This document shows, in pieces, positions 1 through 22,444 of a stretch of 32,000 bases of DNA. This stretch comes from Alkalilimnicola ehrlichii MLHE-1 (GTDB lineage: Bacteria > Pseudomonadota > Gammaproteobacteria > Nitrococcales > Halorhodospiraceae). The DNA lies in the NCBI RefSeq assembly GCF_000014785.1, contig NC_008340.1, positions 2,040,001-2,072,000 of the forward strand, read 5' to 3'. The notes beneath the pieces were generated by a model. That model was not told the DNA's origin, made no database searches, and worked only from the letters and a program-made list of their open reading frames with translations. The translations under genes and the position numbers were made by a program. How positions within the stretch are numbered: the first letter of the stretch is position 1; every line of letters begins with the position of its first letter.

Positions 1-1
1 G

Positions 2-430
2 GTGGTGCTGGTCGGTCCGGGGTGGCTGGCGGCCACCAAGGGCACCGACTTCGCACGGCTGGCGGGGCGTGCCAACGGCGAGACCGAGATCGTGCAGCTG
101 CTTTCGGCCTGGCAGATAGAGAATGGCGTGGCGCACTCACGGGACGTGGCATTGGCCACGCCCCGCAACCGCCTGGCCGCGCAGGCCGCACTGGAACTGC
201 CCGAGCGCCGGATCCGCGAGGCCGAGGTGGCCGTGGTCGATGGCGACGGCTGTGCGCTGATGCGCCAGGAGGTGCATGGCAGCTTCGATGCGCCGGAGAT
301 CGAGGAGCCGCACTTCCTGGAGGTGCTGCTCGGCGCCCCGCTGGACCTGCTGAAACGCGGGCTGGATGCCCTATCCATCAGCCCGGAGGACTGCGAGGTC
401 TTCTACGAAGGCGACGTTGCCGCGCCATGA
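2..430 (+). CDS. 3' end of a larger host gene cut by the window edge; possibly an AsmA-family C-terminal region (tentative)
   Basis: The open frame runs from the window edge to TGA at 428-430 with host-like high GC. The family guess rests only on the recalled pattern around ...IENGVAHSRDVALATPRNRLAAQAALELP... Confidence 0.4.
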   Translation: MVLVGPGWLAATKGTDFARLAGRANGETEIVQLLSAWQIENGVAHSRDVALATPRNRLAAQAALELPERRIREAEVAVVDGDGCALMRQEVHGSFDAPEIEEPHFLEVLLGAPLDLLKRGLDALSISPEDCEVFYEGDVAAP

Positions 431-447
431 GCGCGGCTGGTTATGCA

Positions 448-711
448 TTATTCGTAGTGGCTCCAGAGCCTCAGAACTTTTACCACCCGATCTTCTTCCA
501 ATACTTGGTAGACCAGACGATGCTGAATATTGATGCGGCGCGAATAGGCCCCCGCGAGATCCCCAATGAGTTTCTCGAACGGAGGCGGCTTGCGGTAAGG
601 GTCCTCTGAAATCAGCGCCAACAATTCCTGGGCTTTTGGTTTGAGGCCGCTAGAGGCCAGTTTCTTTGCATCTTTCTGGGCTTGCTTGGTGTAAACCAAC
701 TTCCATGTCAC
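448..711 (-). CDS. yoeB: YoeB/Txe-family type II toxin (mRNA interferase)
   Basis: 87 aa. Typical YoeB sequence (MTWKLVYTKQAQKDAKKL...RRINIQHRLVY...LWSHYE with the C-terminal His-Tyr). 4-nt ATGA overlap with the upstream antitoxin gene. Confidence 0.85.
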   Translation of the reverse strand: MTWKLVYTKQAQKDAKKLASSGLKPKAQELLALISEDPYRKPPPFEKLIGDLAGAYSRRINIQHRLVYQVLEEDRVVKVLRLWSHYE

Positions 712-950
712 CAGTCCATCTCCTCATCGCATTCGTCCACAGGGGTATCCATCCCCTCACGAATAGACTCCCTCATGCCCGGTACGGAGAGCAGATAAAG
801 TGTTTCCTGAATCGCAGACCAGTCTTCCTCGGAAACCAAGACGGCTTTGTTCCGCTTACCCGTGATGACGATTGGTTGGTGGGACTCGGCGGTCTCGTCA
901 ATCAACCGATAAAGGTTGCTGCGCGCCTCAGTTGCTGTGATTCCGGTCAT
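708..950 (-). CDS. yefM: Phd/YefM-family antitoxin
   Basis: 80 aa. The N-terminus (TATEARSNLYRLIDETAESHQPIVITGKRNKAVLVSEEDWSAIQETLYL) is classic YefM/Phd, with an acidic C-terminal tail. Overlaps yoeB by 4 nt. Confidence 0.85.
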   Translation of the reverse strand: MTGITATEARSNLYRLIDETAESHQPIVITGKRNKAVLVSEEDWSAIQETLYLLSVPGMRESIREGMDTPVDECDEEMDW

Positions 951-983
951 GACGCACCTCTTGCGTGTTCAACTTTTCACCAA

Positions 984-1021
984 GTGTACGCCTTTGGGTA
1001 CGTACGTCAAGACGAACGTAC
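984..1021 (-). promoter_or_regulatory. Putative yefM-yoeB promoter/operator with repeated GTAC cores
   Basis: GTAC cores at 986-989, 998-1001, 1002-1005 and 1018-1021, 35-70 nt upstream of the yefM ATG. TGTACG (985-990) and GGTACG (997-1002) are 12 bp apart. On the minus strand TTGACG (1011->1006) could act as a -35. Confidence 0.35.
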
Positions 1022-1237
1022 TGCATAACGCCCGGCCCCCAGCAGGTCAACCAGATCGGTGTGGCCACGGCCCCGCTGCACGTCCGGCACCCAGTGCAGG
1101 TAGCGCATGGTCGAGTGCAGATCCTTATGCCCCTTGCCTTGCTCGATGCGAAGCTGAGAGCGCTCGCCGTCAATGTCCGTGACCCGCACCGCGACCAGCT
1201 CACTGACCCGTAACCCCTTCGCTCTAACGCCAGCCAT
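1007..1237 (-). pseudogene. Remnant of a tyrosine recombinase gene (5'-truncated, internally deleted)
   Basis: The 76-aa ORF contains GLRVSELVAVRVTDIDGERSQLRIEQGKGHKD (box I region) fused directly to LHSTMRYLHW (the C-terminal Tyr region). Most of the catalytic domain is missing. The apparent ATG lies inside attC 1222-1282. Confidence 0.6.
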
Positions 1238-1282
1238 CAGTTGCGCGACGCAAGGAGCGTCAACTGCATGGCATTGTTATAC
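1222..1282 (-). other. Integron attC site (61 bp) closing the type I R-M cassette
   Basis: Plus strand: CTCTAAC-gccaGCCATCAGTTGCGC-gacgcaagga-GCGtCAACTGcATGGCatt-GTTATAC. It is an imperfect palindrome with two unpaired bases on one arm. The minus-strand R'' GTATAAC is the exact complement of the GTTATAC that opens the cassette at 8520-8514. Confidence 0.8.
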
Positions 1283-1303
1283 GCTTTCTGCACCCCAAAA
1301 CGC

Positions 1304-4300
1304 CTATCCGCCGCCGGTGCGCTTTTCCTCACGCACTCGCTTAAAAATCTCCTCGGCAAGGTGCTCATGGGCTGCTGAACGAAACTCCTTGTCGGTCATC
1401 ACACGCGAAAATATGTCTTCGTTGTTTTCCATTCGGTCAATGAACAGTTCATCCAGCATTCGCTCCAGAAATGCGGAGAAGTTTGGCAGGTTGTTTGCCC
1501 TTGCCGCTTCAACGATTTTTTCATTTTCCTCGGCGCTCGCGGTGATCTGATCAAAGAACAGTTGGTCGGCTTCGGTAAAGTCTGTGCCAAAACGTTCGTT
1601 TAGCTTTTCGACCAGTGATGATAGCGGCACGGCTTCCTCCTTCACGCCACTAGTGCCGACATCGGTGGGCCCTTTCAGAGGGTAGGCCTCGCCCGTGCCC
1701 AGGTCGATGGAGCCCTCCGTCATTTGTTGCAGGCGGAAATAGCGCAAGGCCACTTCGTCGTCGAGTGCGAAGGCCTGACCATCGCCAGGAGGGGGAAGCT
1801 TGGAAAGTAAGTTGCGGACGAAGGCGTAAAATTTTTCCAGTTCGCTGTCCTGATACGGAATGATCTGAGATAGAAAAGCGTAGAGATTACGGTAGGCGGT
1901 CAACTGGCCGCGAAACTCTTCTTGCTCCGCTTCCTCCCTGTCACTGAAGCGCGCAACCACCGCATCTAACACTGCATTCATTACCCGGTGGTCGGAAGCA
2001 GAGTGATCCCGTTTGCTCCGATACCATACATCCGCGAAAGCATTGACATCATCGGGCGCAAAGATGGCCCAACCCATAAGTTTGTGTTGCAGCTCGGACA
2101 ACTGGTGCGGATCGGCATTCTCGCCGACAGGTGTAGCCTCGTAGTAGGGCTTGAAGGACTGATAGATATCGTCTTCCTCGTTGGCGAAGTCCAGCACGAA
2201 GGTACGGGCCTTGCCCGGTGCCACACGATTGAGGCGAGACAGGGTCTGCACTGCCTGGACACCGGCCAGGCGTTTGACTACATACATGGTCTGCAGCAGC
2301 GGCTGGTCGAAACCGGTCTGGTATTTCTCCGCGACCAGCAGCACACGGTAATCCTCGCGCTCGAAGGTTTCCGGCAGCTCGCTTTCCGCCAGACCGTCAT
2401 TCATCGCGACCTCGGTGTAAGCGGAACCGGGGTCGTCTGGATCTTCAACGCTACCGGAGAAAGCGACCAGCGAGCGTATGCCGCCATAGCCGTTGTCCTT
2501 GATATAGCGGTCAAAGGCCAATTTGTATTTCACCGCAGCCAGCCGCGATCCAGTCACTACCATGGCTTTGGCACGCCCGCCCATTTCGCTCATCACATAC
2601 AACCGGAAGTGCTCGACGATCACCGAGACCACCTGCTCGATATTGACCGGGTGCAATTCCAGGTAGCGGCTCAGGGCCTTGGCGGCTTTCTTGCGCGGTA
2701 CTTCCGGGTCGTTCTCAACCTGCTTGATCAGGCCGAAGAAGCGCTTGTAGGTGGTGTAGTTCTGCAGCACGTCCATGATGAAGCCTTCTTCGATGGCCTG
2801 ACGCATGGAGTATTCGTGAAACGGAGAGCTGCCGGAGGGGCCCGGTTCATCGAAAAGGGCCTTGGTCTTGAATTTCGGCGTGGCGGTAAAGGCAAAGAAA
2901 CTAAGGTTTGGTTGCCGTGCCCGCTTCAGCGAATCGCGAAGAATAGCGGCCTTGGCTTCATCCGACAGCGCATCGTCTTCCTCATCCGACAACTGGGCGG
3001 CTATGGCCGCCTCGATGCCATCCTTGTTCAGCATGCCCCGCAATTCAGAAGCTGTCTCGCCGCTCTGGGAGGAATGCGCCTCGTCCACAATCACAGCAAA
3101 ACGCTTGCCGGCGGTGCTGATTTTCACCCCTGTGCCCTTTTTCTCCAGCGTAGAAAGGGCCTGGGAAATGAAGGGGAATTTCTGCAAGGTGGTGATAATG
3201 ATCGGCGTGCCGCCGGACAGGGCCTGAGCCAATTGCTGGGTGTTCTCGTCGATCTTCTCCACCACCCCGGTCTTGTGCTCGAACTGGTAGATGGTGTTCT
3301 GCAACTGCTGGTCCAGCACGCGCCGGTCAGTGACCACCACCACCGAGTGGAACACCTTCTGATCCTCGGCATCGTGCAGGCTGGCCAGCCGGTGCGCCAG
3401 CCAGGCGATGGAATTGGACTTGCCGGAACCGGCCGAGTGCTGGACCAGATAATTGTGCCCCGAGCCATTGGCCCGTGCATGGACCACCAGCCTGCGCACC
3501 GCGTCGAGCTGGTGATAGCGGGGGAAGATCATGGTTTCCTTGCGGATGGTGCGCACGCCCTTGTCGGTCTTGACCTGCCGCTCCTTCACCTCCAGGTGCA
3601 TGAAGCGTTGCAGGATGTCCATCAGGCTGTCCTTCTCCAGCACCTCATCCCACAGGTAGTGGGTCTTCCAGTTGTTCTCCACTGGTGGATTGCCTGCGCC
3701 ATGATCATGCCCGCGGTTGAAGGGCAGAAAGACGGTATCCTTGCCCTTCAGGCGCGTGGTCATCCATGCCTCGTCCGGGTCCACGGCAAAATGCACCAAG
3801 GCGCGCTTTTTGAACGCAAACAACAGGTCGCGTTCATCGCGGTCCTGCTTGTATTGCTTGACCGCATCTGCCGCCCGCTGGCCGGTGAGCGAGTTTTTCA
3901 ATTCTGCGGTGACCACCGGCAGGCCGTTCAAGCTCAGAGTGACATCGATAATGCAGCGGCGGTTTTTGGTTGATTTTGGACCATCGGCCTTCTTCATCAC
4001 CGAAGTAAAAGCCACCTGCCGGGTGACCGTTAGCCGGTTCAGTGCGTAGGCGGCCGCCGCCTCCGGGTTCATGCCGGAATTGGGCCGGAAATGCGCCAGC
4101 CGGAAGGTCTTGCCGTAACATTTGAAGCCGTAGCGCAGCACATGCAGGGTGCCCTTGATCTCCAACTCCTTGGCCAGGCTGTGCAGCACCGTGGCGCGAG
4201 TCTTTTCGCCCAGCAAGGCTTCCAGTTGGCCCCACTTGGCCGCTTGGCTGTCCTGCAAAAAACCGGTGACATCCTCTGGGAATATCGCCAACGCCTCGTC

Positions 4301-4393
4301 GTAGGCTGAGGCATTGCGTTTCTCATAGCCGCCCGCACTGGTCAGGCTGGCTTCTATGGCGGTTTCAAAAGCGAGTTCGGAGTGGCCAGCCAT
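1304..4393 (-). CDS. hsdR: Type I restriction enzyme R subunit (helicase/endonuclease)
   Basis: 1029 aa. Walker A (SAGSGKSNS), DEAH box (VIVDEAHSSQSG) and SF2 helicase layout. Last gene of an hsdM-hsdS-orf-hsdR operon. Confidence 0.9.
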   Translation of the reverse strand: MAGHSELAFETAIEASLTSAGGYEKRNASAYDEALAIFPEDVTGFLQDSQAAKWGQLEALLGEKTRATVLHSLAKELEIKGTLHVLRYGFKCYGKTFRLAHFRPNSGMNPEAAAAYALNRLTVTRQVAFTSVMKKADGPKSTKNRRCIIDVTLSLNGLPVVTAELKNSLTGQRAADAVKQYKQDRDERDLLFAFKKRALVHFAVDPDEAWMTTRLKGKDTVFLPFNRGHDHGAGNPPVENNWKTHYLWDEVLEKDSLMDILQRFMHLEVKERQVKTDKGVRTIRKETMIFPRYHQLDAVRRLVVHARANGSGHNYLVQHSAGSGKSNSIAWLAHRLASLHDAEDQKVFHSVVVVTDRRVLDQQLQNTIYQFEHKTGVVEKIDENTQQLAQALSGGTPIIITTLQKFPFISQALSTLEKKGTGVKISTAGKRFAVIVDEAHSSQSGETASELRGMLNKDGIEAAIAAQLSDEEDDALSDEAKAAILRDSLKRARQPNLSFFAFTATPKFKTKALFDEPGPSGSSPFHEYSMRQAIEEGFIMDVLQNYTTYKRFFGLIKQVENDPEVPRKKAAKALSRYLELHPVNIEQVVSVIVEHFRLYVMSEMGGRAKAMVVTGSRLAAVKYKLAFDRYIKDNGYGGIRSLVAFSGSVEDPDDPGSAYTEVAMNDGLAESELPETFEREDYRVLLVAEKYQTGFDQPLLQTMYVVKRLAGVQAVQTLSRLNRVAPGKARTFVLDFANEEDDIYQSFKPYYEATPVGENADPHQLSELQHKLMGWAIFAPDDVNAFADVWYRSKRDHSASDHRVMNAVLDAVVARFSDREEAEQEEFRGQLTAYRNLYAFLSQIIPYQDSELEKFYAFVRNLLSKLPPPGDGQAFALDDEVALRYFRLQQMTEGSIDLGTGEAYPLKGPTDVGTSGVKEEAVPLSSLVEKLNERFGTDFTEADQLFFDQITASAEENEKIVEAARANNLPNFSAFLERMLDELFIDRMENNEDIFSRVMTDKEFRSAAHEHLAEEIFKRVREEKRTGGG

Positions 4394-4396
4394 GGA

Positions 4397-5008
4397 TCAA
4401 ATCTCCTGTATCGAGGTGTTCTGCAACTCGGCCAGCGCCTGGCCGTGCACCTCGTCAAAATGGTAATAGCGTATGGATGGATCAGCGCGGAGTTGCCGAT
4501 TGGGTTCCAGATAGGCGTCTGGGTTGTCATTCTCGGCAAAGACGAATTTGCGAAGATGAATTCGGCGCTTGTCACCGGTGTAATGCTCGATGGTGCGCTT
4601 GAGGCTGTGGACCCAACAGGCACCCGCCCTGAGCTGAGGGACAATCTTTTCAGCAGTCAAACTCTTGGATTTGAACTCGATACAGTCCGCGTAAAACCTT
4701 TGGCCGTTCACATAGAAAATAACGAAGTCGCAGCGCTTTGACCAAGGCTTAGCTGTATCGTCTAGAAAGTGGAAAAGAGGCGGTTTACTCTTTTTCCGCT
4801 GCAACTCAACCTGATCATGGTCCAACTTGAAAGCCAATCCCGGCCCCGGCAAAAGAAGCTGTATTTTCCTTGTTTTCGCGCGGGTCCCTGTTGGAGGAAA
4901 ATACTTTTCTTTCAGGATGACTTCACCTCCCACGCCATCATGCATCACATATCGACTATTTACATAGGCCTTCAGGTGCTCGAAATAGGTGGAGGCTGCC
5001 AACGTCAT
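4397..5008 (-). CDS. Hypothetical protein with a PD-(D/E)xK-like motif, embedded in the type I R-M operon
   Basis: 203 aa. Its start overlaps the hsdS stop (ATGA at 5005-5008) and its stop is 3 nt from the hsdR start. ...KRCD94FVIFYVNGQRFYADCIE111FK113SKS... fits D-x(n)-ExK on consecutive beta-strand-like segments (codons about 4670-4729). No family recognised. Confidence 0.55.
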   Translation of the reverse strand: MTLAASTYFEHLKAYVNSRYVMHDGVGGEVILKEKYFPPTGTRAKTRKIQLLLPGPGLAFKLDHDQVELQRKKSKPPLFHFLDDTAKPWSKRCDFVIFYVNGQRFYADCIEFKSKSLTAEKIVPQLRAGACWVHSLKRTIEHYTGDKRRIHLRKFVFAENDNPDAYLEPNRQLRADPSIRYYHFDEVHGQALAELQNTSIQEI

Positions 5009-6264
5009 TGCAGACCTCCGATTTGGCCAGTGACGGCAGCGGTAATTAGTGCAGAGCGATATTCTTCTAGCTTCTGGACACTACGCTTTACTTCATCTGC
5101 AGCGAAGCGATTCTCTCGATCTACACGTGAACAATAGTCGGCAATCTCAGTTTGCTCATCTAGAAAGGGAATTGGTAACACAAACGCACCAAGCGCTTCT
5201 CGATTTACTTTAGGCATCGCAACGCGAAGTGACTCAAGCTCGGCATAAGCCGTAAACGCATCAGTTAGAAGAAAATAAAATAAGTACCGACGTTCAAAAT
5301 ACTTCCCGGGGTCAATAGCGTACATATCTGCACTGCAAAGACACACTGAATCAAATAACGCAACCTTTCTGAGTGCAGGGCGAATCTTTGAGTATAGAAC
5401 AGAGCCCTCAGAGCAGAAGTATTTCCCGCTAATTGCTCCCTGTTCCTCGGCACTAGGGACATCGTATAGTCGTCCAGTACCGCTTTCTATATAGTCGGGA
5501 GCAATTAAAGGCATATCTGTATACTCAGGCTCGCGAGGATCGACTTGCCCACTTTGTACTTGGCATCTCCATTTGAATGGAACCAGATCCCAATGCGCAG
5601 GAATATCACCCAGCCAGTCGATGCCGGAGGGTTTCATGGGGGCTTCGGGGTTAAGGCCCTTGGTGACGGCGCGGGTGATCAGGGCCTGGCGCTTTTCCGC
5701 CAGCCGGTCCAACAGGGCGCGCTTTTTCTCGATCAGGCCATCGATGCGGGCGGTCTTCTCATCCAGAAACTGCGCGATGCGGCGCTGGGTTTCGAGGGGT
5801 GGGAGCGGCATTTCGATAGTGACCAGCTCACTAGCGTTAATCGCCGGATAGCTGACCCCGACCGAGCGCGAAACAACCTCCGATACAAACGGCTCAGATT
5901 TCGCGGCCCAACCGAGGTATCCACTATCGACTTCTTCCCTGTCTGGTCGAACAACACAAAAACCTGTCGAAGCAATCAGGTCTGGCGAAGCTTCGTCAAC
6001 CTTGGCAATGGCCCTGAGGTAAGTCCGAACTGTAGAAATCAATATGTCGCCGCTTCGCACTTTACGACGAGCACGAGAGGGAGCCTTCCCGAAAGTAATA
6101 CGCTCTACCTGCTCAACTCCACGAGATAGGGAAACACCTGAGATCTCAACGTAGTCGATCTCGGCCTCTTCATCAGTGCTTTCTGGTAAGACCTCATCAT
6201 TATAGGTAGCTAGGTATTTGAGGCGCTTGCTTGACCATGTCGCTGGAAGTGTTACGTCAATCAT
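5005..6264 (-). CDS. hsdS: Type I R-M specificity subunit
   Basis: 419 aa. Two target-recognition-domain-like halves are separated by a conserved coiled-coil spacer (PPLETQRRIAQFLDEKTARIDGLIEKKRALLDRLAEKRQALITRAVTKGL). The C-terminal repeat of the same type is KLEEYRSALITAAVTGQI. Overlaps hsdM by 4 nt. Confidence 0.9.
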   Translation of the reverse strand: MIDVTLPATWSSKRLKYLATYNDEVLPESTDEEAEIDYVEISGVSLSRGVEQVERITFGKAPSRARRKVRSGDILISTVRTYLRAIAKVDEASPDLIASTGFCVVRPDREEVDSGYLGWAAKSEPFVSEVVSRSVGVSYPAINASELVTIEMPLPPLETQRRIAQFLDEKTARIDGLIEKKRALLDRLAEKRQALITRAVTKGLNPEAPMKPSGIDWLGDIPAHWDLVPFKWRCQVQSGQVDPREPEYTDMPLIAPDYIESGTGRLYDVPSAEEQGAISGKYFCSEGSVLYSKIRPALRKVALFDSVCLCSADMYAIDPGKYFERRYLFYFLLTDAFTAYAELESLRVAMPKVNREALGAFVLPIPFLDEQTEIADYCSRVDRENRFAADEVKRSVQKLEEYRSALITAAVTGQIGGLQ

Positions 6265-8438
6265 CCCACCAATCCCCTTAAAAGCCCGGCAATTTCCCCT
6301 TCCAGTTCGGTAATCTCCTGCTCGATCTCGTCCAGCGGACGCGGTGGCTTGTAGACGTAGAAATGCCGGTTGATCGGGATTTCATAACCCACCTTGGTCT
6401 TGCTGTAGTCCACCCAGGCATCATCCACATGGGGCAGCACCTCGCGGGCCATGTAGGCGTCGATCTCGGCCCGGAAGGCGGTCACCAGCTTGTCATTGGG
6501 TTTGTCCGGGCCGAACTGCATTGGCAGGGGCAGTTGGGTGCCCTCGGGCAAGGGGATGTTCTCGGTGTCGCGCAGTTCGCTGTCAGGCTCCGGTCTGCCC
6601 TTGCTGTCGCGGCAAATTTCGGCATCGGGGTCGCGCTCGCCCAGAGCGTTGAAGATGGCCTTTTTGATCGGTACCGGGAGTTTGAGGCTAGCCACCTTGG
6701 CAGCGGCGTTCAGATCCGCTTCGAAAACGGCGCGGTCGGTGTACTGCCCCTTGGGTGCTAGGCTCGCCAACAGAGCGCGAATCGCCTCCTGCTGCTTTTG
6801 CCCTTCCGCGATCTCCTTGGCAGCCGCAGCCTCATTCTTGCGTTTTTTCGAGGTGGCCAGGTTGGCAAAGGCGGTCTGCTCATCCAGCCGGGCAATGCGC
6901 TCCGGCGAAGCTTCGAAGTTCATGCGCAGGGGGCGCTCCACCGTCACCTTGAGAAAGCCGAACTCGCGGTTCTCGAAAATGCGGGAGACCACACGGGTTT
7001 CGGTGTCGCCGTTGATTCTTACCTCGGCGGTTTCACCGTCCCGGTTGTTACCGTAGAGTCGGGTCAGATCGCGGATCTGGTCTTCGGTGACCTCGTTACG
7101 CTTGTTGTTGAGGCTTTTCTTCATGCGCTGGAAAAAGCGTGTGCCGTCGATTAGTTGCACCTTGCCGCGCCGCTCCGGGGCCTTGCGGTTGGTCACCAGC
7201 CAGACATAGGTGAAAATACCGGTGTTGTAGAAAAGCTGGTCGGGCAGCGCGACGATGGCATCGAGCCAGTCGTTTTCGATAATCCAGCGGCGGATATTCG
7301 ACGGCCCGGAACCGGCATCACCGGAAAATAGCGGCGAGCCATTGAAGACGATGGCGATCTTGGAACCGACGGAGTCGTCATCCCCCTCTTTGTAGGGGTG
7401 CATCTTGGCGATCATGTGCTGCAGGAACAGCAGGGAGCCGTCATTGATGGCGGGCAGGCCGGCGCCGAATCGTCCGGCAAAGCCCATCTCCTTGTGTTCT
7501 TTCTCGACGACGGTTTTCTGGTCTTTCCACTCCACACCAAAGGGCGGATTAGCCAGCAGGTAGTGAAACTGCTTGCCCTCGAAGCCGTCGCGGGTCTTGC
7601 CGTCGCCCAGGGTATCGCCCAGCACGATGCTGCTGGTGTCTTCATCCTTGATCAGCATGTCCGAACAGCAGATGGCCCAGGACTCGTCGTTGTACTCCTG
7701 ACCGAACAGCGCCAAGTTAGCCTGACTGTTCTGGTCGAGGATGAATTTCTCCGATTCCGACAGCATGCCGCCCGTACCGCAGGCCGGGTCGTAAATAGTG
7801 CGGTAGATGCCCGGCGTGTAAACATCCTGTTCGCCGGTGTAGACCAGATTGGCCATCAGGCGGATGACTTCGCGCGGGGTGAAGTGGTCCCCGGCCTCTT
7901 CGTTGGCCTGCTCATTGAAGCGCATCACCAGATGCTCGAACAGGTAGCCCATTTGCAGGTTGTCGATGCGGTCCGGGTGCAGGTCCACTTCTGACATCGC
8001 CTTGACGATGGTAAACAGCCGGTTGCTGGCGTCGAGTTTTTCGATCTGGTCAGTGAATTTAAAACGCTCGAAGATGGCCCGAGCCGTAGGCGAGAAACCG
8101 TTGATATAGGCGACAAGGTTAGGCGCAATGTTCTCCGAATCCCCCAACAATTTCTCGAAGATGAACGGACTGGTGTTGTAGAGAGGGTGGGTTCGGTCAG
8201 GATCGGCCGCCTTGCCCAACAGCTTCTCCATGGCATTTTCCGGCATACCTTGAGCGGACAGCTTTTCGTATTGCTTCAGCACCGCTTCTTTGGTGGGCTC
8301 CAGCACACAATCCAGTCGCCGCAGCACGACCATAGGCAGCATGACCAAGCGGTACTGAGGGGGGCGGTAAGGGCCGCGAAGGCGGTTGGCGATTTCCCAG
8401 ATGTGGCTTTTGAGCTGGTCGTGCAACTGCAAGTTCAT
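6261..8438 (-). CDS. hsdM: Type I R-M N6-adenine DNA methyltransferase subunit (long form, 725 aa)
   Basis: HsdM N-terminal region, AdoMet motif (DPACGTGGML) and catalytic NPPFG (LLANPPFGVEW). A long C-terminal extension is present. AAGGA lies upstream of the ATG. Confidence 0.9.
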   Translation of the reverse strand: MNLQLHDQLKSHIWEIANRLRGPYRPPQYRLVMLPMVVLRRLDCVLEPTKEAVLKQYEKLSAQGMPENAMEKLLGKAADPDRTHPLYNTSPFIFEKLLGDSENIAPNLVAYINGFSPTARAIFERFKFTDQIEKLDASNRLFTIVKAMSEVDLHPDRIDNLQMGYLFEHLVMRFNEQANEEAGDHFTPREVIRLMANLVYTGEQDVYTPGIYRTIYDPACGTGGMLSESEKFILDQNSQANLALFGQEYNDESWAICCSDMLIKDEDTSSIVLGDTLGDGKTRDGFEGKQFHYLLANPPFGVEWKDQKTVVEKEHKEMGFAGRFGAGLPAINDGSLLFLQHMIAKMHPYKEGDDDSVGSKIAIVFNGSPLFSGDAGSGPSNIRRWIIENDWLDAIVALPDQLFYNTGIFTYVWLVTNRKAPERRGKVQLIDGTRFFQRMKKSLNNKRNEVTEDQIRDLTRLYGNNRDGETAEVRINGDTETRVVSRIFENREFGFLKVTVERPLRMNFEASPERIARLDEQTAFANLATSKKRKNEAAAAKEIAEGQKQQEAIRALLASLAPKGQYTDRAVFEADLNAAAKVASLKLPVPIKKAIFNALGERDPDAEICRDSKGRPEPDSELRDTENIPLPEGTQLPLPMQFGPDKPNDKLVTAFRAEIDAYMAREVLPHVDDAWVDYSKTKVGYEIPINRHFYVYKPPRPLDEIEQEITELEGEIAGLLRGLVG

Positions 8439-8513
8439 TTAGTTGATTATCCTTTTGATATTAGTGCGTGTTTCTGTAGATAATGTTCTCAGGTGAAGCG
8501 GTATTGTGAGTGC

Positions 8514-8603
8514 GTATAACGCAAAGGTAACCGGCGCCGGAGCGCCAGCGGGGGGAACCAAAAGCGGAACGCTTTTGGCGTCCGGTTGACCGCTTGGTTA
8601 GAG
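8514..8603 (-). other. Integron attC site (90 bp) closing the DUF867 cassette
   Basis: Plus strand: GTATAAC-gcaaaGGTAACCGGCGCC...GGCGtCCGGTTgACCgcttg-GTTAGAG. T and G are unpaired on the arm next to GTTAGAG. A perfect 9-bp inner hairpin (CCAAAAGCG-gaa-CGCTTTTGG) is present. The ORF stop codon (8598-8600) lies inside the R'' box. Confidence 0.85.
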
Positions 8604-9212
8604 CAGGCCTGCACGAATCAGCCCCTGACGAACGGCATCGACAAATTTATAGAACACGTCAGTCTGGCGTGCTCTTCCAGCTTTATTGAGAGACTCAAAG
8701 AGAGTGCTTCTCAAGCCGCGGGAGAGCTCTAATTGAACACCAGCTCCGCTCGTTCCGCGATTACAGATATTCGCTCGTGATGTCCCTTGAAGATTCGGGT
8801 TTTCATGCTTGCGCACGGTAAAACCGGCCTCTGCAAGTGCTTCGCTTATTTGAGAGCGCAGCAGCGCATCGGCACCGCCAGCAAATACCGTTTCCCCTGG
8901 GCTGTTTTCACCATGTATTGCTACAGCAGTGCGAGACCGCGCGACTACTTCGACACAACGAGGTTCATCGAAATTCGTACTGGTTATATGCAAGTCCCGG
9001 TTCTTGGCTACCTTAGTACCCTCAAAAATTGCGAAACTAAACTGCTCGCCTGCAATAGCAAAGGCCAACTCTGATGTGCCTGGCTCAATTGCACCACCAT
9101 GCGGGGCAATCACAGCTACCGCTGCTTCGTCTCGCACCGCCACCTGAACGCGAAAATCGCGCCCTTCAGTTTGCTCAGCTTTAAGTGCTTTAAAATTTGA
9201 GTATCTGTCCAT
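8598..9212 (-). CDS. Poly-gamma-glutamate hydrolase family (DUF867 / PghP-like) protein
   Basis: About 204 aa. APHGGAIEPGTSE and ...AVAIHGE... match the remembered HGG-IE-GT and downstream His zinc-ligand pattern of the family. The ATG at 9212 is preferred over the TTG at 9215. Confidence 0.65.
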   Translation of the reverse strand: MDRYSNFKALKAEQTEGRDFRVQVAVRDEAAVAVIAPHGGAIEPGTSELAFAIAGEQFSFAIFEGTKVAKNRDLHITSTNFDEPRCVEVVARSRTAVAIHGENSPGETVFAGGADALLRSQISEALAEAGFTVRKHENPNLQGTSRANICNRGTSGAGVQLELSRGLRSTLFESLNKAGRARQTDVFYKFVDAVRQGLIRAGLL

Positions 9213-9219
9213 CAATTCG

Positions 9220-9288
9220 CTCTAACGCTCAACTAAGCCGCTGGGCGGAGCGTAGCGTAGCCCAGTCGGCTTGAGTGTTATGTTAGCG
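9220..9288 (-). other. Integron attC site (69 bp) closing the membrane-protein cassette
   Basis: Plus strand: CTCTAAC-GCTCAActaAGCCGcTGGG-cggagcgtagcgtag-CCCAgtCGGCTTGAGt-gttat-GTTAGCG. The minus-strand R'' CGCTAAC is the exact complement of GTTAGCG at the cassette start (10209-10203). A tandem partial box GTTAT/GTTAGCG leaves the exact R'' register ambiguous. Confidence 0.75.
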
Positions 9289-10188
9289 ATTCGACATAAC
9301 ACGATAGAACTCTCTCACTGCACTTGCGAACGCGGAGCGTTCCCTAAGCAGTCGCACATACGTCGGCAGATTAAATCCGATAACGGGAGAGAGCAGATTG
9401 CCACGAATGCTGCCGGCCAGCATGGATATTGGCCCGCTCAACTTCTCCGCACAGTCAATAAATTGTTGGCATTCCTGTACGTTCACTTGATTATGGAACT
9501 CTTGGATGTAATTGGGATTATTCACATCGACTATTGGTACATGAATCCACATCTTTCTCCCGATCTCCTCAAGAGCCTGCACTGCCTCATCAAAGGCATC
9601 CGGCATTCCCCAGCCCGAACATAGTATTGTGTAGTTCCTTCCCTTTATTCGATGAACTTGTACCGTGGCCTGCGACAGTTGCTCTCTCGCTGATAGGAAT
9701 TCTCTAGTCTGGCTCAGGGCCCAGTCCACCTTAAATTTTGCCTCACGAGCGTTACTCCCTCTTTGGACCTCATTCACCGCTTCAACGAGGGACTCTACGA
9801 AGAGCTGCGCATCAGTTACAAGTTGGTTGGTTGTTCCAAAAAAATGCTCGATTTCGCCCGCTGTCTGGGTTCTAAGCTGCGCCTGTTGCTGCTGCTTCCA
9901 GCTCACGGTTGCCGTATGAAATGCCACCACAAAGCCACCAAGAGTTACCGCTGCGGTGGCAAGTCCTACTTTGTAAGCCTCCGGCTGTCCGTTGAACCAC
10001 AATACCAACTCGCCAGGGGAAAATGGCTCTACACCGAGCACAGTCTCCGCCCCTACGTATAGTGATATCGCCAGCGCTAGTGCACCCAATGCAGTGCCGA
10101 AAAGAAAGTGCACCAACATCCCAATCGAAATGAACGCGTAGAACGCTGGAACGGCCACTTGAGGTGGAATGCGCTGGAATATCTTCAT
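9283..10188 (-). CDS. Hypothetical membrane protein (2-3 N-terminal TM helices plus a helical soluble domain)
   Basis: The ORF track gives 9283-10266. I prefer the ATG at 10188 (MKIFQRIPPQ...), which is preceded by GGGAG. The hydrophobic stretches are AVPAFYAFISIGMLVHFLFGTALGALALAISLYVGA and VGLATAAVTLGGFVVAFHTATV. No family recognised. Confidence 0.55.
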   Translation of the reverse strand: MKIFQRIPPQVAVPAFYAFISIGMLVHFLFGTALGALALAISLYVGAETVLGVEPFSPGELVLWFNGQPEAYKVGLATAAVTLGGFVVAFHTATVSWKQQQQAQLRTQTAGEIEHFFGTTNQLVTDAQLFVESLVEAVNEVQRGSNAREAKFKVDWALSQTREFLSAREQLSQATVQVHRIKGRNYTILCSGWGMPDAFDEAVQALEEIGRKMWIHVPIVDVNNPNYIQEFHNQVNVQECQQFIDCAEKLSGPISMLAGSIRGNLLSPVIGFNLPTYVRLLRERSAFASAVREFYRVMSNR

Positions 10189-10202
10189 ACGTCTCCCAGA
10201 CT

Positions 10203-10274
10203 CGCTAACGCCGCGCTCTGCGGCAAATTTGGAGCGCAGCGGAGAATTTGTCCGACAGCAGCGCATTGTTAGGG
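10203..10274 (-). other. Integron attC site (72 bp) closing the CHAT-like cassette
   Basis: Plus strand: CGCTAAC-gccGCGCTCTGCGGCAAATT-tggagcgcagcggag-AATTTGtCCGaCAGcAGCGCatt-GTTAGGG. It forms a long imperfect stem with unpaired bases on the arm next to GTTAGGG. The minus-strand R'' CCCTAAC is the exact complement of GTTAGGG at the cassette start (11148-11142). Confidence 0.85.
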
Positions 10275-10277
10275 ATT

Positions 10278-11126
10278 TTACGTGGCAACAATATCATCCT
10301 TAGATAAAGGGAAGCGCGCATCATTTTCTGGAAAATCAGCAATGAAGAAGAACCTTTTTCTGAGTTTATCAAAGTGCTGATCTTCAGATGCAAGACCTTT
10401 CTTTACTTGCTGTCTGGCCCATGCCACACCACGTCTCTTTACGTCGGGGTTTTTCATCGCCTCAGAAACAAGGCGTTCTACCCTTTCTTTCTTCCCTTTC
10501 CCGACACAGTGACTTTTATAGTAGGCTCGGTAAGCCCTTGAAAATAGTCCAGCAGCGCTTAAAAAATGATAGGTTCGATCTTGATGCTCTGCCCCTTCAT
10601 TAAGGATACCTATGGCTTTATCACCATCGAGGTCGAAAAAGAAGGACTCATAAAACCGACCGAAATTATCCTGAATATGCCCAGCAGTTACTTCTACCTC
10701 CGGACCAATTATTGCCCAGAAAGGAGCCGCATCTAGCCTTGTAGATGCTTTTATTAAATGGGCACCATTGCAGGCAGCAATTACAATCATCAGATTTAGC
10801 TTAGTCGCTCGGTTAATCTCAATAAGTATCTCTCTGATTTCATCCCATTCAACCAGTTCTCCGCTAGCGGTTCCCAAGCCGTCTTCACACCCATGACACT
10901 CAAAGTGGATCATTGGATATATTCCGCTCAAAGCCTCATTTCGTATTTTTTCTAATACGTCAAACAGCTCGGACTTAGTTATTGGCTCAGCGAATTCGAC
11001 GACAAGGTCTTGCTGTACCTGCTTAGCCTTGTCCAGCTGATTGTCGAAGAGATTTTTCCCGGTTCTAAGCTCACCTGATGGTAAAGATTCTATAACCCAC
11101 AGCTTATTGAAAATATTTCCGGACAT
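10278..11126 (-). CDS. Putative clan-CD (caspase/CHAT-like) cysteine peptidase, single-gene cassette
   Basis: 282 aa. A hydrophobic strand followed by His-Gly (PMIHFEC-H78-G) and, 41 residues later, a hydrophobic strand followed by Cys (LMIVIAA-C119-NGA). This is the order and context of the caspase-hemoglobinase-fold catalytic dyad. H78 codon 10893-10895; C119 codon 10770-10772. Motif-level call only. Confidence 0.5.
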   Translation of the reverse strand: MSGNIFNKLWVIESLPSGELRTGKNLFDNQLDKAKQVQQDLVVEFAEPITKSELFDVLEKIRNEALSGIYPMIHFECHGCEDGLGTASGELVEWDEIREILIEINRATKLNLMIVIAACNGAHLIKASTRLDAAPFWAIIGPEVEVTAGHIQDNFGRFYESFFFDLDGDKAIGILNEGAEHQDRTYHFLSAAGLFSRAYRAYYKSHCVGKGKKERVERLVSEAMKNPDVKRRGVAWARQQVKKGLASEDQHFDKLRKRFFFIADFPENDARFPLSKDDIVAT

Positions 11127-11141
11127 GACGATTCCATTTAT

Positions 11142-11217
11142 CCCTAACGCGCAGCGTAACCGGTCGGATTTGGAGCGTCAGCGGAAAAGCCGATCCGTGT
11201 TGACGCTGTTGTTGTGC
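11142..11217 (-). other. Integron attC site (76 bp) closing the DUF262-HEPN cassette
   Basis: Plus strand: CCCTAAC-gcgCAGCGTAACCGGTCGG-atttggagcgtcagcggaaaag-CCGAtCCGtGTTgACGCTGtt-GTTGTGC. The 16-nt arm pairs perfectly once T, T and G on the other arm are flipped out. The minus-strand R'' GCACAAC is the exact complement of GTTGTGC at the cassette start (13051-13045). Confidence 0.85.
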
Positions 11218-11260
11218 TAAGCTGACGGATCGAATTCGTCTCGCCGCCACTCCTTATCCA

Positions 11261-11893
11261 TTACTCTGCACAATTCATAATATTATTTTGGAAACAATCC
11301 GATAAAACCAGAAGCATCCTTTGCGTAAACGTGACGTGCTCCCTGATATCTATCGTCGACAAATCCGGGTCATCGCCATGCGCAATACTATGGCGCCACC
11401 TCACAAGCTCGTTGTCTATTTTAAGGCGCCACCGCAAGAATGGAGAGCAATCGAACCCCATGACTTCGAAGTTGTCTTTTAACTTTCTGAAATCTAGATT
11501 TGATCTAGAAGAAACCACTTCCTTATCAAAATTCAAAAAGTCCCCTCTTGTCACTTCCTGAAATCGCAAGATAAACTCTACTGCTGCAAGCTGAGAATGA
11601 TTTCTATCTCTGAGCCTTTGAAAATCAGACTGGAGCAACCCAATCAGCATTGGCCAAGAGACATCTGAAACCTTCTTTCTAGCCTCCCTCAAAAAATCTA
11701 TGTAAAGAGATACGCAATCGTTATAAAACCCTTCCCAGTGAGAATAGGATAAAACGATAACTGCCTTCGACTGGACCCCAAATTGCGCAATAGAGCCTAG
11801 CTCATTCATTCGGACTTTTATCTCTGACAGTTCCTTGGCTCGGCGCAAGCGGATCGAATCCAAGTCTGAGAGAAATTGAAAAACATCGCTCAT
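11261..11893 (-). CDS. HEPN-domain protein (MAE_28990/MAE_18760-like), predicted RNase effector
   Basis: About 210 aa. Rx4H motif W-R-H-S-I-A-H-G (codons 11378-11395) near the C-terminus, plus the upstream YSHWEGF element typical of this HEPN family. The ATG at 11893 overlaps the DUF262 TGA (ATGA). The ORF track starts at 11908. Confidence 0.7.
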   Translation of the reverse strand: MSDVFQFLSDLDSIRLRRAKELSEIKVRMNELGSIAQFGVQSKAVIVLSYSHWEGFYNDCVSLYIDFLREARKKVSDVSWPMLIGLLQSDFQRLRDRNHSQLAAVEFILRFQEVTRGDFLNFDKEVVSSRSNLDFRKLKDNFEVMGFDCSPFLRWRLKIDNELVRWRHSIAHGDDPDLSTIDIREHVTFTQRMLLVLSDCFQNNIMNCAE

Positions 11894-12999
11894 TGTGGAG
11901 AAAACCAATTCTCACCAAATGGTACGGTTCTTTGGATCCGAGTAGTCCCTCGCAAGCCTGACGCACTCAACTCGGCGACATCTCTTTCTCGCCAGAACCG
12001 ATCGACGCGCTCACGCAAAAAACCATCCGGGTCTTCCAAGTCCTGAATTTTTTCTTTGTTTCTGGCGACCCCTACCAATATCGCTTCCAGTGCACGCAGA
12101 GAAAATCTTTTGGCTATTCCTTGATAAGCCTCGTCATGAGGAATCAAGGCATCGCCCCCGAATAAGCTATGCAAGCTATTGACGGCCCATTCCACCGTAT
12201 GGATCACATCATTCGGATCTTGATCCACGATAATTCGCGCAATACTTCGGTCGAGGAACTCCTGAACATCAGCATCTGAGCCAAAATCTTCGACTGTATG
12301 AACAATAGCACGAACCGCATATTCAACATCTTTTTGTTTTAAATTCTGCTCTTCCGTAATTTTAAAAATATTTATAAATTCTTCGCTTCTTGCCAGATTC
12401 CTTATTCGAGCGGTAGCATCTGCATTTCCAAGCACCATTGAACAAGTGCGGACTTCCTGCTCATTAGCGTACTCGCCACCCCGATTCAATCGCTGAAACA
12501 AATCAAATTTCGTTTTTGCGTCACTTGGGTGTTTAAGTATCTGGAAATCCAAGCGTGACCGACGAAAGAAAAGCTGAAGAGATTTTTCAAGAACTTGAGC
12601 ACCTCCATCTCCTCCTTCTGTTGGCCACACGACACCATCTAAGGACGGAAGATAGGTTGCAGTTGTCAGAGTAGAAGGCGGCATCTTCTCTGCAGGATTA
12701 TCTGGTTCGCGCAAAACGCCCATGAACTCGAGCACTGTGGAGATACGTTGTAACCCGTCTATCAGCTCCCATGTTCCATCTGGCTTTTCATATGCGAAAG
12801 CCGGGGGCACAGGGATTCCAATCAAAATCGATTCGATAAAAGCCGTCTTCTTTTCAGGAGACCAACGAAATAATCTCTGAAAATCAGGGATAATATCTAG
12901 CTCCTCCGCCGCATACATGGAAGCGATCTCCCCAATGGAGATTTGCAAACTATCGGTAACAACTGATCGCTTTGCGGTTTCTAGTTCATTTCTTAACAT
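11890..12999 (-). CDS. DUF262 (ParB/Srx-fold, GmrSD-N-like) protein lacking a DUF1524/HNH nuclease domain
   Basis: DFQRLFRW, IDGLQR and FQRLNRGG motifs match the DUF262 signature (QR..W, DGQQR, LN.GG). The ATG at 12999 is preceded by GAGGG at 7-nt spacing. The ORF could extend to 13017. Confidence 0.75.
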   Translation of the reverse strand: MLRNELETAKRSVVTDSLQISIGEIASMYAAEELDIIPDFQRLFRWSPEKKTAFIESILIGIPVPPAFAYEKPDGTWELIDGLQRISTVLEFMGVLREPDNPAEKMPPSTLTTATYLPSLDGVVWPTEGGDGGAQVLEKSLQLFFRRSRLDFQILKHPSDAKTKFDLFQRLNRGGEYANEQEVRTCSMVLGNADATARIRNLARSEEFINIFKITEEQNLKQKDVEYAVRAIVHTVEDFGSDADVQEFLDRSIARIIVDQDPNDVIHTVEWAVNSLHSLFGGDALIPHDEAYQGIAKRFSLRALEAILVGVARNKEKIQDLEDPDGFLRERVDRFWRERDVAELSASGLRGTTRIQRTVPFGENWFSPQ

Positions 13000-13044
13000 T
13001 AAGCAGCCCTCAAGCATGGAGAATCATAAGCAGAAATTTCATCT

Positions 13045-13063
13045 GCACAACGCCTAGTTAACC
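13045..13063 (-). other. attI-like simple site at the head of the cassette array
   Basis: Minus strand: GGTTAAC-taggc-G|TTGTGC. The GTTGTGC core is cognate to the R'' of the first cassette's attC. A related 19-bp site (plus strand GTTCAAC-gcctt-GTTGCAC) lies at 13140-13158. Overlaps the last codons of the IS91 tnpA ORF. Confidence 0.5.
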
Positions 13064-19794: not shown

Positions 19795-19872
19795 GGGGGC
19801 AACACCCCGGTGCTTATGTCATAGTATTCGCGAAAAGCCCACCCTACCCACCACGGATTGAGCCACGGACGC

Positions 19873-22436: not shown

Positions 22437-22444
22437 CCGCGCAA

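Follow-up and report, generated by a model that had tools for sequence, protein, structure and literature searches.

A chromosomal integron of Alkalilimnicola ehrlichii MLHE-1 with a type I restriction-modification operon probably bounded as a single cassette

The window analysed here, a whole stretch of 32,000 nt from Alkalilimnicola ehrlichii MLHE-1 (NC_008340.1, positions 2,040,001-2,072,000; all coordinates below are window positions), contains a block of low-GC genes which an earlier note had described as an integron cassette array dominated by conflict and defence modules. This locus raises the question of what the array is made of and, above all, whether a complete four-gene restriction-modification (R-M) operon can lie in it as one cassette. 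Integron cassettes as reservoirs of compact anti-phage systems, to which the note had referred, are indeed described in two published reports. According to these, the systems carried by integrons "never exceed 2 components", and the common R-M systems are of types II and IV (10.1101/2024.07.02.601686; 10.1101/2024.07.02.601719). In the integron literature cassettes are 2.2-fold enriched in defence systems, and published surveys cluster attC sites with a 4 kb cut-off. The features of the locus are collected in Table 1.

Table 1 Features of the integron and its cassettes, in window positions.
Feature	Position	Strand	Details
C7 cassette	440-1028	-	truncated attC, R'' GCATAAC 446-440
yoeB	448-711	-	TIGR02116 Txe/YoeB, 92 bits (cut-off 52)
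yefM	708-950	-	PhdYeFM_antitox (PF02604), 75 bits
C6 remnant cassette, 199 nt	1029-1227	-	tyrosine-recombinase fragments, ORF 1007-1237
C5 cassette, 7292 nt	1228-8519	-	attC5 1222-1282; 77-nt leader 8443-8519
hsdR	1304-4393	-	PADLOC REase_I, 110 bits
orf203	4397-5008	-	probable PD-(D/E)xK nuclease
hsdS	5005-6264	-	PADLOC Specificity_I, 303 bits
hsdM	6261-8438	-	PADLOC MTase_I, 894 bits
C4 cassette	8520-9225	-	PghP-family gene 8598-9212; attC4 8514-8603
C3 cassette	9226-10208	-	301-aa protein gene 9283-10188; attC3 9220-9288
C2 cassette	10209-11147	-	282-aa protein gene 10278-11126; attC2 10203-10274
C1 cassette	11148-13050	-	attC1 11142-11217
RiboL-PSP HEPN gene	11261-11908	-	HEPN_RiboL-PSP (PF18735), E 2e-31
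DUF262/ParB-like (GmrSD_N) gene	11890-13017	-	GmrSD_N, E 2e-19
C0 cassette	13051-14458	-	IS91-family transposase ORF 13054-14343; attC0 13045-13159
attI region	14453-14590	-	alignment with Aquisalimonas L013
intI	14591-15979	+	integron integrase, 462 aa, TIGR02249

The integron platform and its cassettes

The integrase scored 448 bits against TIGR02249 (cut-off 265), with residues 150-462 covering model positions 3-315 of 315, and contains the Pfam domains Phage_int_SAM_4 and Phage_integrase. Its N-terminal extension of ~145 aa is conserved and common to the IntI of Thiohalobacter, Chromatiaceae and Aquisalimonas. The gene faces away from the cassettes, whose genes are all on the opposite strand, and the array sits between a host ORF and intI-mfd, the right flank being formed by the core genes mfd, lysS, prfB, cysS and gltX. 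An Aquisalimonas MAG (locus L013) has the same intI-mfd neighbourhood and entirely different cassettes, none of them in common, so that a fixed chromosomal site with variable cassettes was found. The alignment of both loci was kept up to ...TAGAATCAACTGTT (CAACTG|TT), with complete divergence beyond, which places the attI crossover between G14459 and T14458 (box GTTGCAC, 14459-14453). The attI-like site had previously been located near 13050, and the array therefore begins 1.4 kb beyond the end it had been given.

Eight co-oriented cassettes (C0-C7) are stacked on the - strand from this crossover, making up a 14.0 kb array (440-14459). The description as an integron array, borne out by the integrase and by the attC hairpins between cassettes, thus had to be amended in its details: the IS91 cassette and the 199-nt remnant had been missed, and the attC at 10203-10274 splits the 282-aa gene from the membrane protein gene, which belong to separate cassettes. 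The ORF of the latter, listed with 327 aa, really starts at ~10188. Six attCs are complete (61-115 nt) and their bottom strands fold as bulged hairpins, with z-scores of -2.0 to -4.2 for attC1-5 and -2.0 for attC0. A GGAGCG..AGCG core is common to four of the six, their lengths and stems vary, and the array comprises eight cassettes only. In 7 out of 8 cassettes the 5' GTTnnnn box and the cassette's own R'' are exact reverse complements, a match expected by chance in 1/256 per cassette (four free bases). Complementarity between the first seven cassette bases (GTTnnnn) and the own R'' is the signature that attC x attI insertion leaves, and each cassette would have been inserted by such IntI-mediated recombination.

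The GC content of the cassettes ranges from 44 to 60% vs 69-70% in both host flanks, in agreement with the AT-richness perceived by eye. Copies of C2, C3 and C7 with 83-97% DNA identity are present in Marinomonas, Vreelandella, Halomonas and a metagenome array. In all of them homology begins at the cassette 5' crossover, and in those of C7 and C3 and in the C2 copy of Marinomonas it also stops at or within the own 3' attC. The low GC, these recurrences with cassette boundaries and the presence of attC5 after hsdR on other contigs (see below) indicate that the cassettes were imported from elsewhere, as the earlier note had proposed, and the same boundaries in other genomes are indirect evidence that IntI may excise and integrate them.

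This integron resembles the sedentary chromosomal integrons with anti-phage cassettes (Darracq 10.1101/2024.07.02.601686; Kieffer 10.1101/2024.07.02.601719) in its chromosomal IntI, its attI and its co-oriented attC-bounded array, in the over-representation of TA and restriction functions and in low-GC cassettes found across genera. It differs from them in its host, which belongs to the Ectothiorhodospiraceae and not to Vibrio, in its short array of eight cassettes, and in that one cassette would be a four-gene type I R-M system. Taken as a whole, the best explanation, which we consider probable, is that positions 440-14459 are the variable region of a sedentary chromosomal integron, and that a complete four-gene type I R-M operon is bounded in it as a single 7.3 kb cassette.

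A type I restriction-modification operon between cassette boundaries

Pfam and PADLOC searches identified in C5 an HsdM, an HsdS with two target-recognition domains and an HsdR with nuclease and SF2 ATPase. The genes of C5 overlap by 4 nt or sit 3 nt apart, so that no attC is possible between them. In reverse complement the 5' box GTTATAC matches R'' GTATAAC, located 7.3 kb away, and the R' of attC5 is GTTAGAG (1228-1222). On at least five other metagenome contigs attC5 was also found after hsdR, with a different downstream neighbour on each: downstream of attC5 the DNA diverges at the R' crossover in L094/L095, L096, L097, L174 and L101 (an attC5-like site in L101), and an attC5-like R'' is likewise retained behind hsdR on one further contig, L100. 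The distance between hsdR and attC5 stays at 19-22 nt though the operon copies differ by up to ~20% in DNA. The same four genes occur as a unit in P4-like islands and defence islands as well, without attC, and homology to non-cassette operons is confined to the stretch from 5 nt upstream of the hsdM ATG to ~30 nt short of the hsdR stop.

The fourth gene, orf203, has 625 homologues, mostly at least 75% identical; in every context examined, the gene lay between hsdS and hsdR. Residues D94, D108, E111 and K113 are invariant in 31 homologues, and the product is a probable PD-(D/E)xK nuclease. Its similarity to the PADLOC models PD-T4-4_B (E 7e-8) and PDC-M47B is only weak; a Foldseek search returned no significant match (best E 0.065), with a list rich in PD-(D/E)xK enzymes. 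Type I R-M systems with embedded accessory genes (Payne et al. 2024, 10.1101/2024.01.29.577857) likewise have an additional gene inserted between hsdS and hsdR; C5 differs from them in that the embedded product is a small PD-(D/E)xK-like protein and the whole operon would be one integron cassette with its own attC.

It could be argued that the operon was not mobilised by IntI, having entered a short cassette or a gap between attCs by other means (homologous recombination, an island integrase), and that it is now immobile, with attC5 left from an earlier occupant. An IntI capture assay failed to recover a 4 kb cassette and recovery correlated negatively with size, the operon is also carried by P4-like and defence islands devoid of attC, and the 5' junction of C5 is known from this window alone, all of which would fit such an origin. 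However, the GTTATAC box exactly complements R'' across 7.3 kb, the homology limits at hsdM and hsdR leave no relic of an earlier cargo, and attC5 remains attached 19-22 nt after hsdR with differing downstream DNA on five contigs or contig pairs. We therefore regard this alternative as unlikely and favour a single cassette, whose product would restrict unmethylated incoming DNA.

The remaining cassettes and the defence reading

Profile searches confirmed the gene content and order that had been reported: DUF262 plus HEPN, a caspase-like protein, a membrane protein, PghP, the type I R-M operon with its extra gene, and yefM-yoeB. The two genes of C1 overlap and their translations display DGLQR and Rx4H motifs; the 5' box GTTGTGC pairs with R'' GCACAAC, and attC1 folds at -16.2 kcal/mol (z -2.6). 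C1 resembles PD-T4-2 (Vassallo et al. 2022), a two-gene system of DUF262 and PF18735 HEPN proteins, in having this domain pair on adjacent overlapping genes, and both domains are also found together, as one unit, on plasmids from several phyla. In contrast to PD-T4-2, the DUF262 protein is nearer to Menshen NsnA (E 1.5e-47) than to PD-T4-2_A (E 1.5e-29), and the HEPN protein, a member of the Pfam family reported for PD-T4-2 (PF18735), matched neither PD-T4-2_B nor any other PADLOC model at E<=10. As a Menshen NsnABC system C1 is incomplete, having two genes, with NsnB (ABC ATPase) and NsnC absent. The ParB-like DUF262 NTPase may sense phage DNA and license the HEPN RNase, leading to growth arrest.

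The caspase/CHAT-like assignment of the C2 protein was upheld by structure: the best Foldseek matches of its AF2 model (pLDDT 89) were SAVED-CHAT 8tl0 (E 1.4e-6) and caspases, and H78/G79 and C119/G121 do not vary among 36 homologues. By structure it is a stand-alone clan CD caspase-fold protease with a conserved His-Cys dyad, possibly a streamlined protease effector. Within the family, Pfam CHAT (PF12770) was found in 3/36 members at E>=0.11, below threshold, and Peptidase_C13 gave weak matches in 29/36 members, below its cut-off. Fold and dyad are shared with the CHAT/caspase-like defence proteases (Borvo, SAVED-CHAT, TPR-CHAT), whereas the C2 protein has only 282 aa, lacks a sensor domain, ends in a ~90-aa C-terminal helical bundle, falls below the Pfam CHAT threshold and was matched by no PADLOC model. 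C2 is 95% identical in DNA to Marinomonas primoryensis across window positions 10207-11148, which are the cassette boundaries, and 97% identical to Vreelandella starting at the 5' box; the Vreelandella homologue adjoins an Mrr_cat protein. Hydropathy analysis of the C3 protein revealed 2-3 N-terminal TM helices, and only 9 homologues were found among 5.8 billion sequences. C3 is 83% identical in DNA to a metagenome array (L184) from the 5' box GTTAGCG into attC3, the next cassette being different, and that array holds a TA pair and an MmeI-type enzyme. The C4 protein covered positions 1-191 of 191 of PF05908 (229 bits, E 5e-68) and matched phrog_4175 (E 2e-40), and its profile matches assign it to the PghP (poly-gamma-glutamate hydrolase-like) family; the 5' box GTTAGAG pairs with R'' CTCTAAC and attC4 folds with a z-score of -3.4.

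At the far end of the array, C7 consists of a Phd/YefM antitoxin gene followed by, and overlapping, a YoeB toxin gene, with 5' box GTTATGC pairing with R'' GCATAAC. The final attC, after yoeB, is truncated, R'' and ~8 nt being left. Halomonas sp. PA16-9 shares 88% DNA identity across window positions 433-1029 only, and its copy has the same attC truncation point. Two overlapping genes, an own promoter-like site and the distal position are also features of the YefM-YoeB cassettes of chromosomal integrons, from which C7 differs in its truncated attC. TA systems stabilise sedentary integrons via addiction (Darracq et al. 2024, 10.1101/2024.07.02.601686); the distal YefM-YoeB may stabilise this array against deletion and perhaps add abortive defence. 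A promoter scan of the array gave sites no more numerous than in shuffled sequence, and the TA cassette alone carries a promoter-like site (1010-983). The IS91 cassette and a terminator-like hairpin (14443-14426) lie between attI and the remaining cassettes; proximal cassettes would be expressed from a promoter near attI and distal ones from promoters of their own.

By length the claim that conflict modules dominate the array stands: C1, C5 and C7, with known defence or conflict relatives, amount to 9.8 of 14.0 kb (about 70%), C5 alone representing 52%. It does not extend to C0 and C6, which are non-defence cassettes, nor to C3 and C4, for which no defence homology was found and whose only link to defence is their neighbouring cassettes. 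The PADLOC search that had been proposed recognised the type I R-M operon as the only complete system in the array; the DUF262 protein matched NsnA and PD-T4-2_A, and the C1 HEPN, caspase-like, membrane, PghP and YefM proteins had no match at E<=10.

It should be considered, then, that the integron is real and its defence dominance over-read, the R-M and TA modules persisting as addictive selfish elements and the other cassettes being ordinary accessory genes with no net anti-phage function. The single complete PADLOC system, the four cassettes without defence homology (C0, C3, C4 and C6), the addiction-based stabilisation described by Darracq et al. and the weight of a single operon in the array length are consistent with this possibility, and the abundance of TA and R-M genes may reflect persistence rather than anti-phage benefit, both being selfish and addictive. 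Nevertheless, C1 combines the two domains of the validated PD-T4-2, which also occur as one unit on plasmids; the His/Cys dyad of C2 is conserved, and its Vreelandella homologue lies next to an Mrr_cat protein; a TA pair and an MmeI-type enzyme are found in the array of the C3 homologue; and type I R-M, even with its selfish traits, is a genuine anti-phage system. This over-reading of the array as defence therefore seems improbable to us. Tentatively, and with somewhat less than an even chance in our estimation, the caspase-fold protease, the PghP-like hydrolase and the membrane protein include at least one new minimal anti-phage system and, jointly with this, the R-M operon is an IntI-mobilised cassette that breaks the two-gene limit and has spread in at least five arrays.

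The two non-defence cassettes hold a transposase gene (C0) and a decayed recombinase remnant (C6). The C0 product, a Y2 HUH transposase (NF033538, 383 bits; Pfam Y2_Tnp and Zn_Tnp_IS91), has one copy on record in the genome. R'' GTGCAAC (13159-13153) matches the 5' box GTTGCAC of C0 in reverse complement, and the L''/L' stem folds. An active IS typically has oriIS/terIS ends and multiple copies; C0 is bounded by a cassette 5' box and an attC. C6 holds two pieces of a tyrosine-recombinase gene (Phage_integrase, E 2.5e-5; TIGR02249 positions 128-165), starts directly after R' GTTAGAG (1228-1222), stops at R' GTTATGC (1029-1023) and has no R'' of its own. An origin of the low-GC block as a generic genomic or defence island, brought in by IS91 one-ended rolling-circle transposition or a phage-type integrase, with coincidental attC-like hairpins, fits the transposase at one edge, the recombinase fragment near the other and the absence of a tRNA gene, but is highly improbable, being already contradicted by a bona fide IntI adjoining a conserved attI, seven perfectly complementary box pairs, homology to other genomes that breaks exactly at the crossovers, and an IS91 gene itself bounded like a cassette and on record as one copy.

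As an integron, the array would represent a horizontally supplied store of conflict genes. Its 7.3 kb R-M cassette is far larger than reported integron cassettes and, if truly a single cassette, would mean that integrons are not limited to compact one- or two-gene cassettes, and that this cassette escapes surveys in which attC sites are grouped with a 4 kb limit.

Integron platform and cassette boundaries

The host flanks of the window (1-439, 70% GC; 15980-32000, 69% GC) enclose cassettes of 44% to 60% GC, in agreement with the greater AT-richness relative to host genes that the earlier note had described, and core chromosomal genes occupy the right flank (mfd, a histidine kinase gene, lysS, prfB, cysS and gltX). 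The integron integrase, IntI, bears an N-terminal extension of about 145 aa (window 14591-15035), without a Pfam match and conserved in an IntI subgroup. The extension was kept in Thiohalobacter, Chromatiaceae, Granulosicoccaceae, Thiotrichaceae and Aquisalimonas (loci L003-L027), and the alignment of most other IntI matches began only at query residue 144-148. An Aquisalimonas metagenome-assembled genome (L013) encodes an 84% identical IntI, also adjoining mfd, and its DNA upstream of intI aligned with the window through TAGAATCAACTGTT and diverged completely beyond, on which basis the attI crossover was placed between G14459 and T14458, 1.4 kb farther out than the end of the array first proposed. 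The segment from intI to attI (14459-15979) has 58% GC compared with 69-70% in the host flanks, and the intI-mfd location is common to Aquisalimonas; the base composition of the integron platform, too, may be foreign. Since the window contains no tRNA gene, an island targeted to tRNA genes was discarded as an explanation.

On the minus strand, every intergenic gap longer than 60 nt contained an imperfect palindrome starting with nnnnAAC and ending with GCGTTnnnn. The decisive test of a boundary was complementarity between the first seven bases of a cassette (its 5' box) and the R'' outer box of its own attC site, and this was perfect in 7 of the 8 cassettes. A scan demanding complementarity of R'' and R' in situ was dropped even though attC2 and attC3 surfaced in it, since the R' box found in situ belongs to the next cassette and the criterion was therefore wrong. 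When folded, the attC bottom strands formed bulged hairpins (z from -2.0 to -4.2 for attC1-5; -2.0 for attC0); at lengths of 61-107 nt, the sites did not attain structural register in a MAFFT alignment. The attC at 10203-10274 (attC2) lies between the genes for the 282-aa protein (C2) and the membrane protein (C3), which places the start of the latter at about 10188, in agreement with the public gene call. Profile searches recovered all the gene families previously named from the sequence, in the same order and on the minus strand; that list had overlooked the first cassette (C0, IS91-family transposase), the recombinase remnant C6 and the attC separating C2 from C3.

The attC following yoeB (window 433-446) is truncated, with only R'' and some 8 nt left. 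Homology to the copy of this cassette in Halomonas sp. PA16-9 (L001 11990-12010) ends at the identical base, which implies that both descend from one truncated ancestor.

Integrase gene, cassettes and R' junctions of attC5 copies (slash, crossover or junction point)
Feature	Position in window	Strand	5' box	R'' box	R' junction	Basis
intI, integron integrase, 462 aa	14591-15979	+				TIGR02249, 448 bits vs cut-off 265, whole model covered
C0			GTTGCAC	GTGCAAC		
C1			GTTGTGC	GCACAAC		
C2			GTTAGGG	CCCTAAC		
C3			GTTAGCG	CGCTAAC		
C4			GTTAGAG	CTCTAAC		
C5	G/TTATAC (8520-8514) to attC5 (1282-1222), 7292 nt	-	GTTATAC	GTATAAC	GTTAGAG/CGAAGG	boundary boxes
C7			GTTATGC	GCATAAC		
attC5 copy, L094/L095					GTTATGC/AAATTG	
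attC5 copy, L096					GTTAAGC/ATTGCG	
attC5 copy, L174					GTTAGCC/CCTTCA	
attC5 copy, L097					ATTATTG	

A type I restriction-modification operon within a single cassette

Cassette C5 carries hsdM, hsdS, a 203-aa gene (orf203) and hsdR, which overlap by 4 nt or are separated by 3 nt, leaving no room for an internal attC. The same four-gene operon was found without an attC in a Marinobacter defence island, a Jannaschia island and P4-like integrative islands, and the DNA homology of the Marinobacter and Jannaschia operons was confined to window 1335-8443, so that only the cassette form has the 77-nt leader and attC5. By scanning metagenomes with the HsdR C-terminus, and in the case of L174 by a separate look-up, we found attC5 directly 3' of hsdR on further contigs (L094/L095, L096, L097, L100, L101 and L174), the attC5-bearing operon copies ranging from 98% to about 80% identity. 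In those attC5 copies that were aligned, divergence into unrelated DNA fell exactly on the R' crossover. The contigs behind L094-L097, L100 and L174 are ERZ1673962 NODE-2546, CEGF01000893.1, Ga0208813_1000735, Ga0105055_10000502, Ga0208482_1001886 and ERZ28616963 scaffold_10306. The 5' junction is known from the window alone, the other contigs being too short or non-integron islands. Exact searches of viral contigs for the R-M leader and attC5 found neither. One contig (L176, 3820-3900) has the same hsdR, with an identical C-terminus, followed by a different attC (CGTTAAC...GTTGGAC) in place of attC5, which looks like a putative attC replacement on the R-M cassette.

The literature searched contained no description of this integron, nor of any cassette carrying type I R-M genes. 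According to Darracq et al. (10.1101/2024.07.02.601686), integron systems 'never exceed 2 components' and R-M types II and IV prevail, and a 2026 preprint describes a 4 kb cassette that escaped capture, recovery being lower with larger cassette size. C5 is a variant beyond the described size and complexity, and a counter-example to the size limit reported for integron-borne systems.

The orf203 product has 625 homologues, and its gene lay between hsdS and hsdR in every context examined. Its invariant residues (D94, D108, E111 and K113) suggest a PD-(D/E)xK nuclease. It showed weak similarity to PD-T4-4_B and gave no significant Foldseek match, and its gene matches the description given by Payne et al. 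(10.1101/2024.01.29.577857) for genes nested inside type I R-M systems.

Small cassettes, transposase cassettes and their relatives elsewhere

The DUF262/GmrSD_N ORF of C1 (375 aa, or 369 aa from the later start in the public gene call) contains a DGLQR motif and matched the PADLOC models NsnA (E 1.5e-47) and PD-T4-2_A (E 1.5e-29). The overlapping partner gene encodes a PF18735 HEPN (RiboL-PSP) protein with the Rx4H motif RHSIAH, which matched no PADLOC model and had no tblastn match among phage genomes. This DUF262 and PF18735 HEPN pair is the composition described for PD-T4-2 (PMC10952713) and also occurs on Bacillus, Corynebacterium and Roseomonas plasmids. In the Menshen system, NsnA is accompanied by NsnB and NsnC, but both are absent here; given this absence and the lack of a PADLOC match for the HEPN protein, C1 was classed as a divergent PD-T4-2-like module and not as Menshen. 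The C2 protein had no Pfam match above threshold. Its AlphaFold model (pLDDT 89) matched the SAVED-CHAT structure 8tl0 (E 1.4e-6) and many caspases, H78/G79 and C119/G121 were invariant across 36 homologues, and 29 of the 36 family members matched Peptidase_C13 weakly. C1 and C2 are, as judged by these similarities, relatives of known defence types.

C3 encodes a protein with 2-3 N-terminal TM helices and only 9 homologues among 5.8 billion sequences, and C4 a full-length PghP-family protein (PF05908, 229 bits) with a phage-family relative; we found no evidence for a defence role of either in this analysis. C7 is a standard YefM-YoeB pair with its own promoter-like site. The description of the array as dominated by conflict or defence modules held by length, C1, C5 and C7 making up 9.8 of 14.0 kb (70%; 77% with C2), but did not extend to C3 and C4.

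Several cassettes recur in other genomes. C2 shares 95% DNA identity with Marinomonas primoryensis from one cassette boundary to the other (window 10207-11148), with different neighbours on both sides, and 97% with Vreelandella alkaliphila starting at the 5' box. For C3, the identity to a metagenome array (L184) is 83% and extends from the 5' box into attC3, the next cassette there being different, and the 88% identity of C7 to Halomonas sp. PA16-9 is limited to 433-1029. The conjugative IncC plasmid pKAZ2 contains a stretch with 97% identity to attC2 (L002 6001-6067) and a second, 82% identical copy 1.2 kb away (L002 4753-4818), and a Pseudoalteromonas xiamenensis plasmid has a sequence with 91% identity, indicating that the attC2 type circulates on plasmids. 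The array of the C3 homologue (L184, 1-8636) also contains a Phd/PIN TA pair and a 917-aa MmeI-type restriction-methylase, and that of the C2 homologue (L185, 5291-13835) a Mrr_cat protein; these add to the large or defence-type genes seen in arrays of cassette-like organisation.

IS91-family (Y2 HUH) transposase genes adjoin intI in cassette orientation at 6 of the 80 IntI loci retrieved (L008 6300-9900, L010, L048 6800-9520, L040 630-3119, L038 and L067), as well as at window 13045-14459, some of them accompanied by an upstream tyrosine-recombinase gene. Boundaries were confirmed in the window, L008, L048 and L040, where the 5' box is complementary to the cassette's own R'', the attC is complete (90-137 nt) and the cassette occupies the first position after attI. 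The three loci besides the window belong to Thiohalocapsa, which carries two tandem copies of the cassette, a Desulfobacterales MAG and a Planctomycetota MAG. The leader motif CCGCTTCGCGG is common to the window, L038 and L048, and L040 has the one-base variant CCGCTGCGCGG. The single similar case found in the literature is ISShvi3 of Shewanella (PMC9229058). These sequences suggest an attI-targeting cassette family, or a functional link of rolling-circle transposases with integrons, and attI-proximal cassettes as vehicles for IS91-type transposase genes are a lead to follow. C6 (199 nt, window 1029-1227; ORF 1007-1237) holds two tyrosine-recombinase pieces, the box I region and then the C-terminal Tyr motif, and its two ends fall on the R' crossovers GTTAGAG (1228) and GTTATGC (1029). 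It looks like a decayed recombinase, probably of a recombinase-plus-IS91 type cassette, and its structure suggests IntI-mediated deletions at secondary sites in such a former cassette.

Proposed function and significance of the array

The window contains an intact IntI, an attI site and cassettes delimited by attC sites, and copies of the cassettes occur in other genomes. Circular cassettes would be inserted at attI by IntI and excised via attC x attC recombination, which would make the array a store fed by horizontal transfer. The R-M cassette would methylate host DNA and restrict foreign DNA; in C1, the ParB-like DUF262 NTPase would sense DNA and then release the HEPN RNase; C2 may serve as a minimal protease effector; and YefM-YoeB would stabilise the distal end of the array. 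A promoter and terminator scan of the window returned no more sites than shuffled sequence, and no convincing promoters. Between attI and C1 stand the IS91 cassette and a hairpin with a T-run. This terminator-like element (14443-14426, minus strand) lies 15 nt past the attI crossover, in the leader of the IS91 cassette, and could keep transcription that starts at a promoter near attI from reaching the array.

The concept that integron arrays store defence genes is already published; the present array illustrates it cleanly outside Vibrio and is a new case, in an Ectothiorhodospiraceae host. Three of its components are small, portable candidates for phage assays: the DUF262 and HEPN pair, the minimal protease with a caspase fold, and orf203 from within the R-M operon. 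As the distance from attC5 to attC4 (7.3 kb) exceeds the 4 kb default clustering of IntegronFinder, censuses may under-count large defence cassettes. The cassette and non-cassette versions of the R-M operon, at about 75-80% DNA identity, are a rare before-and-after pair for studying how an attC attaches to a gene set.
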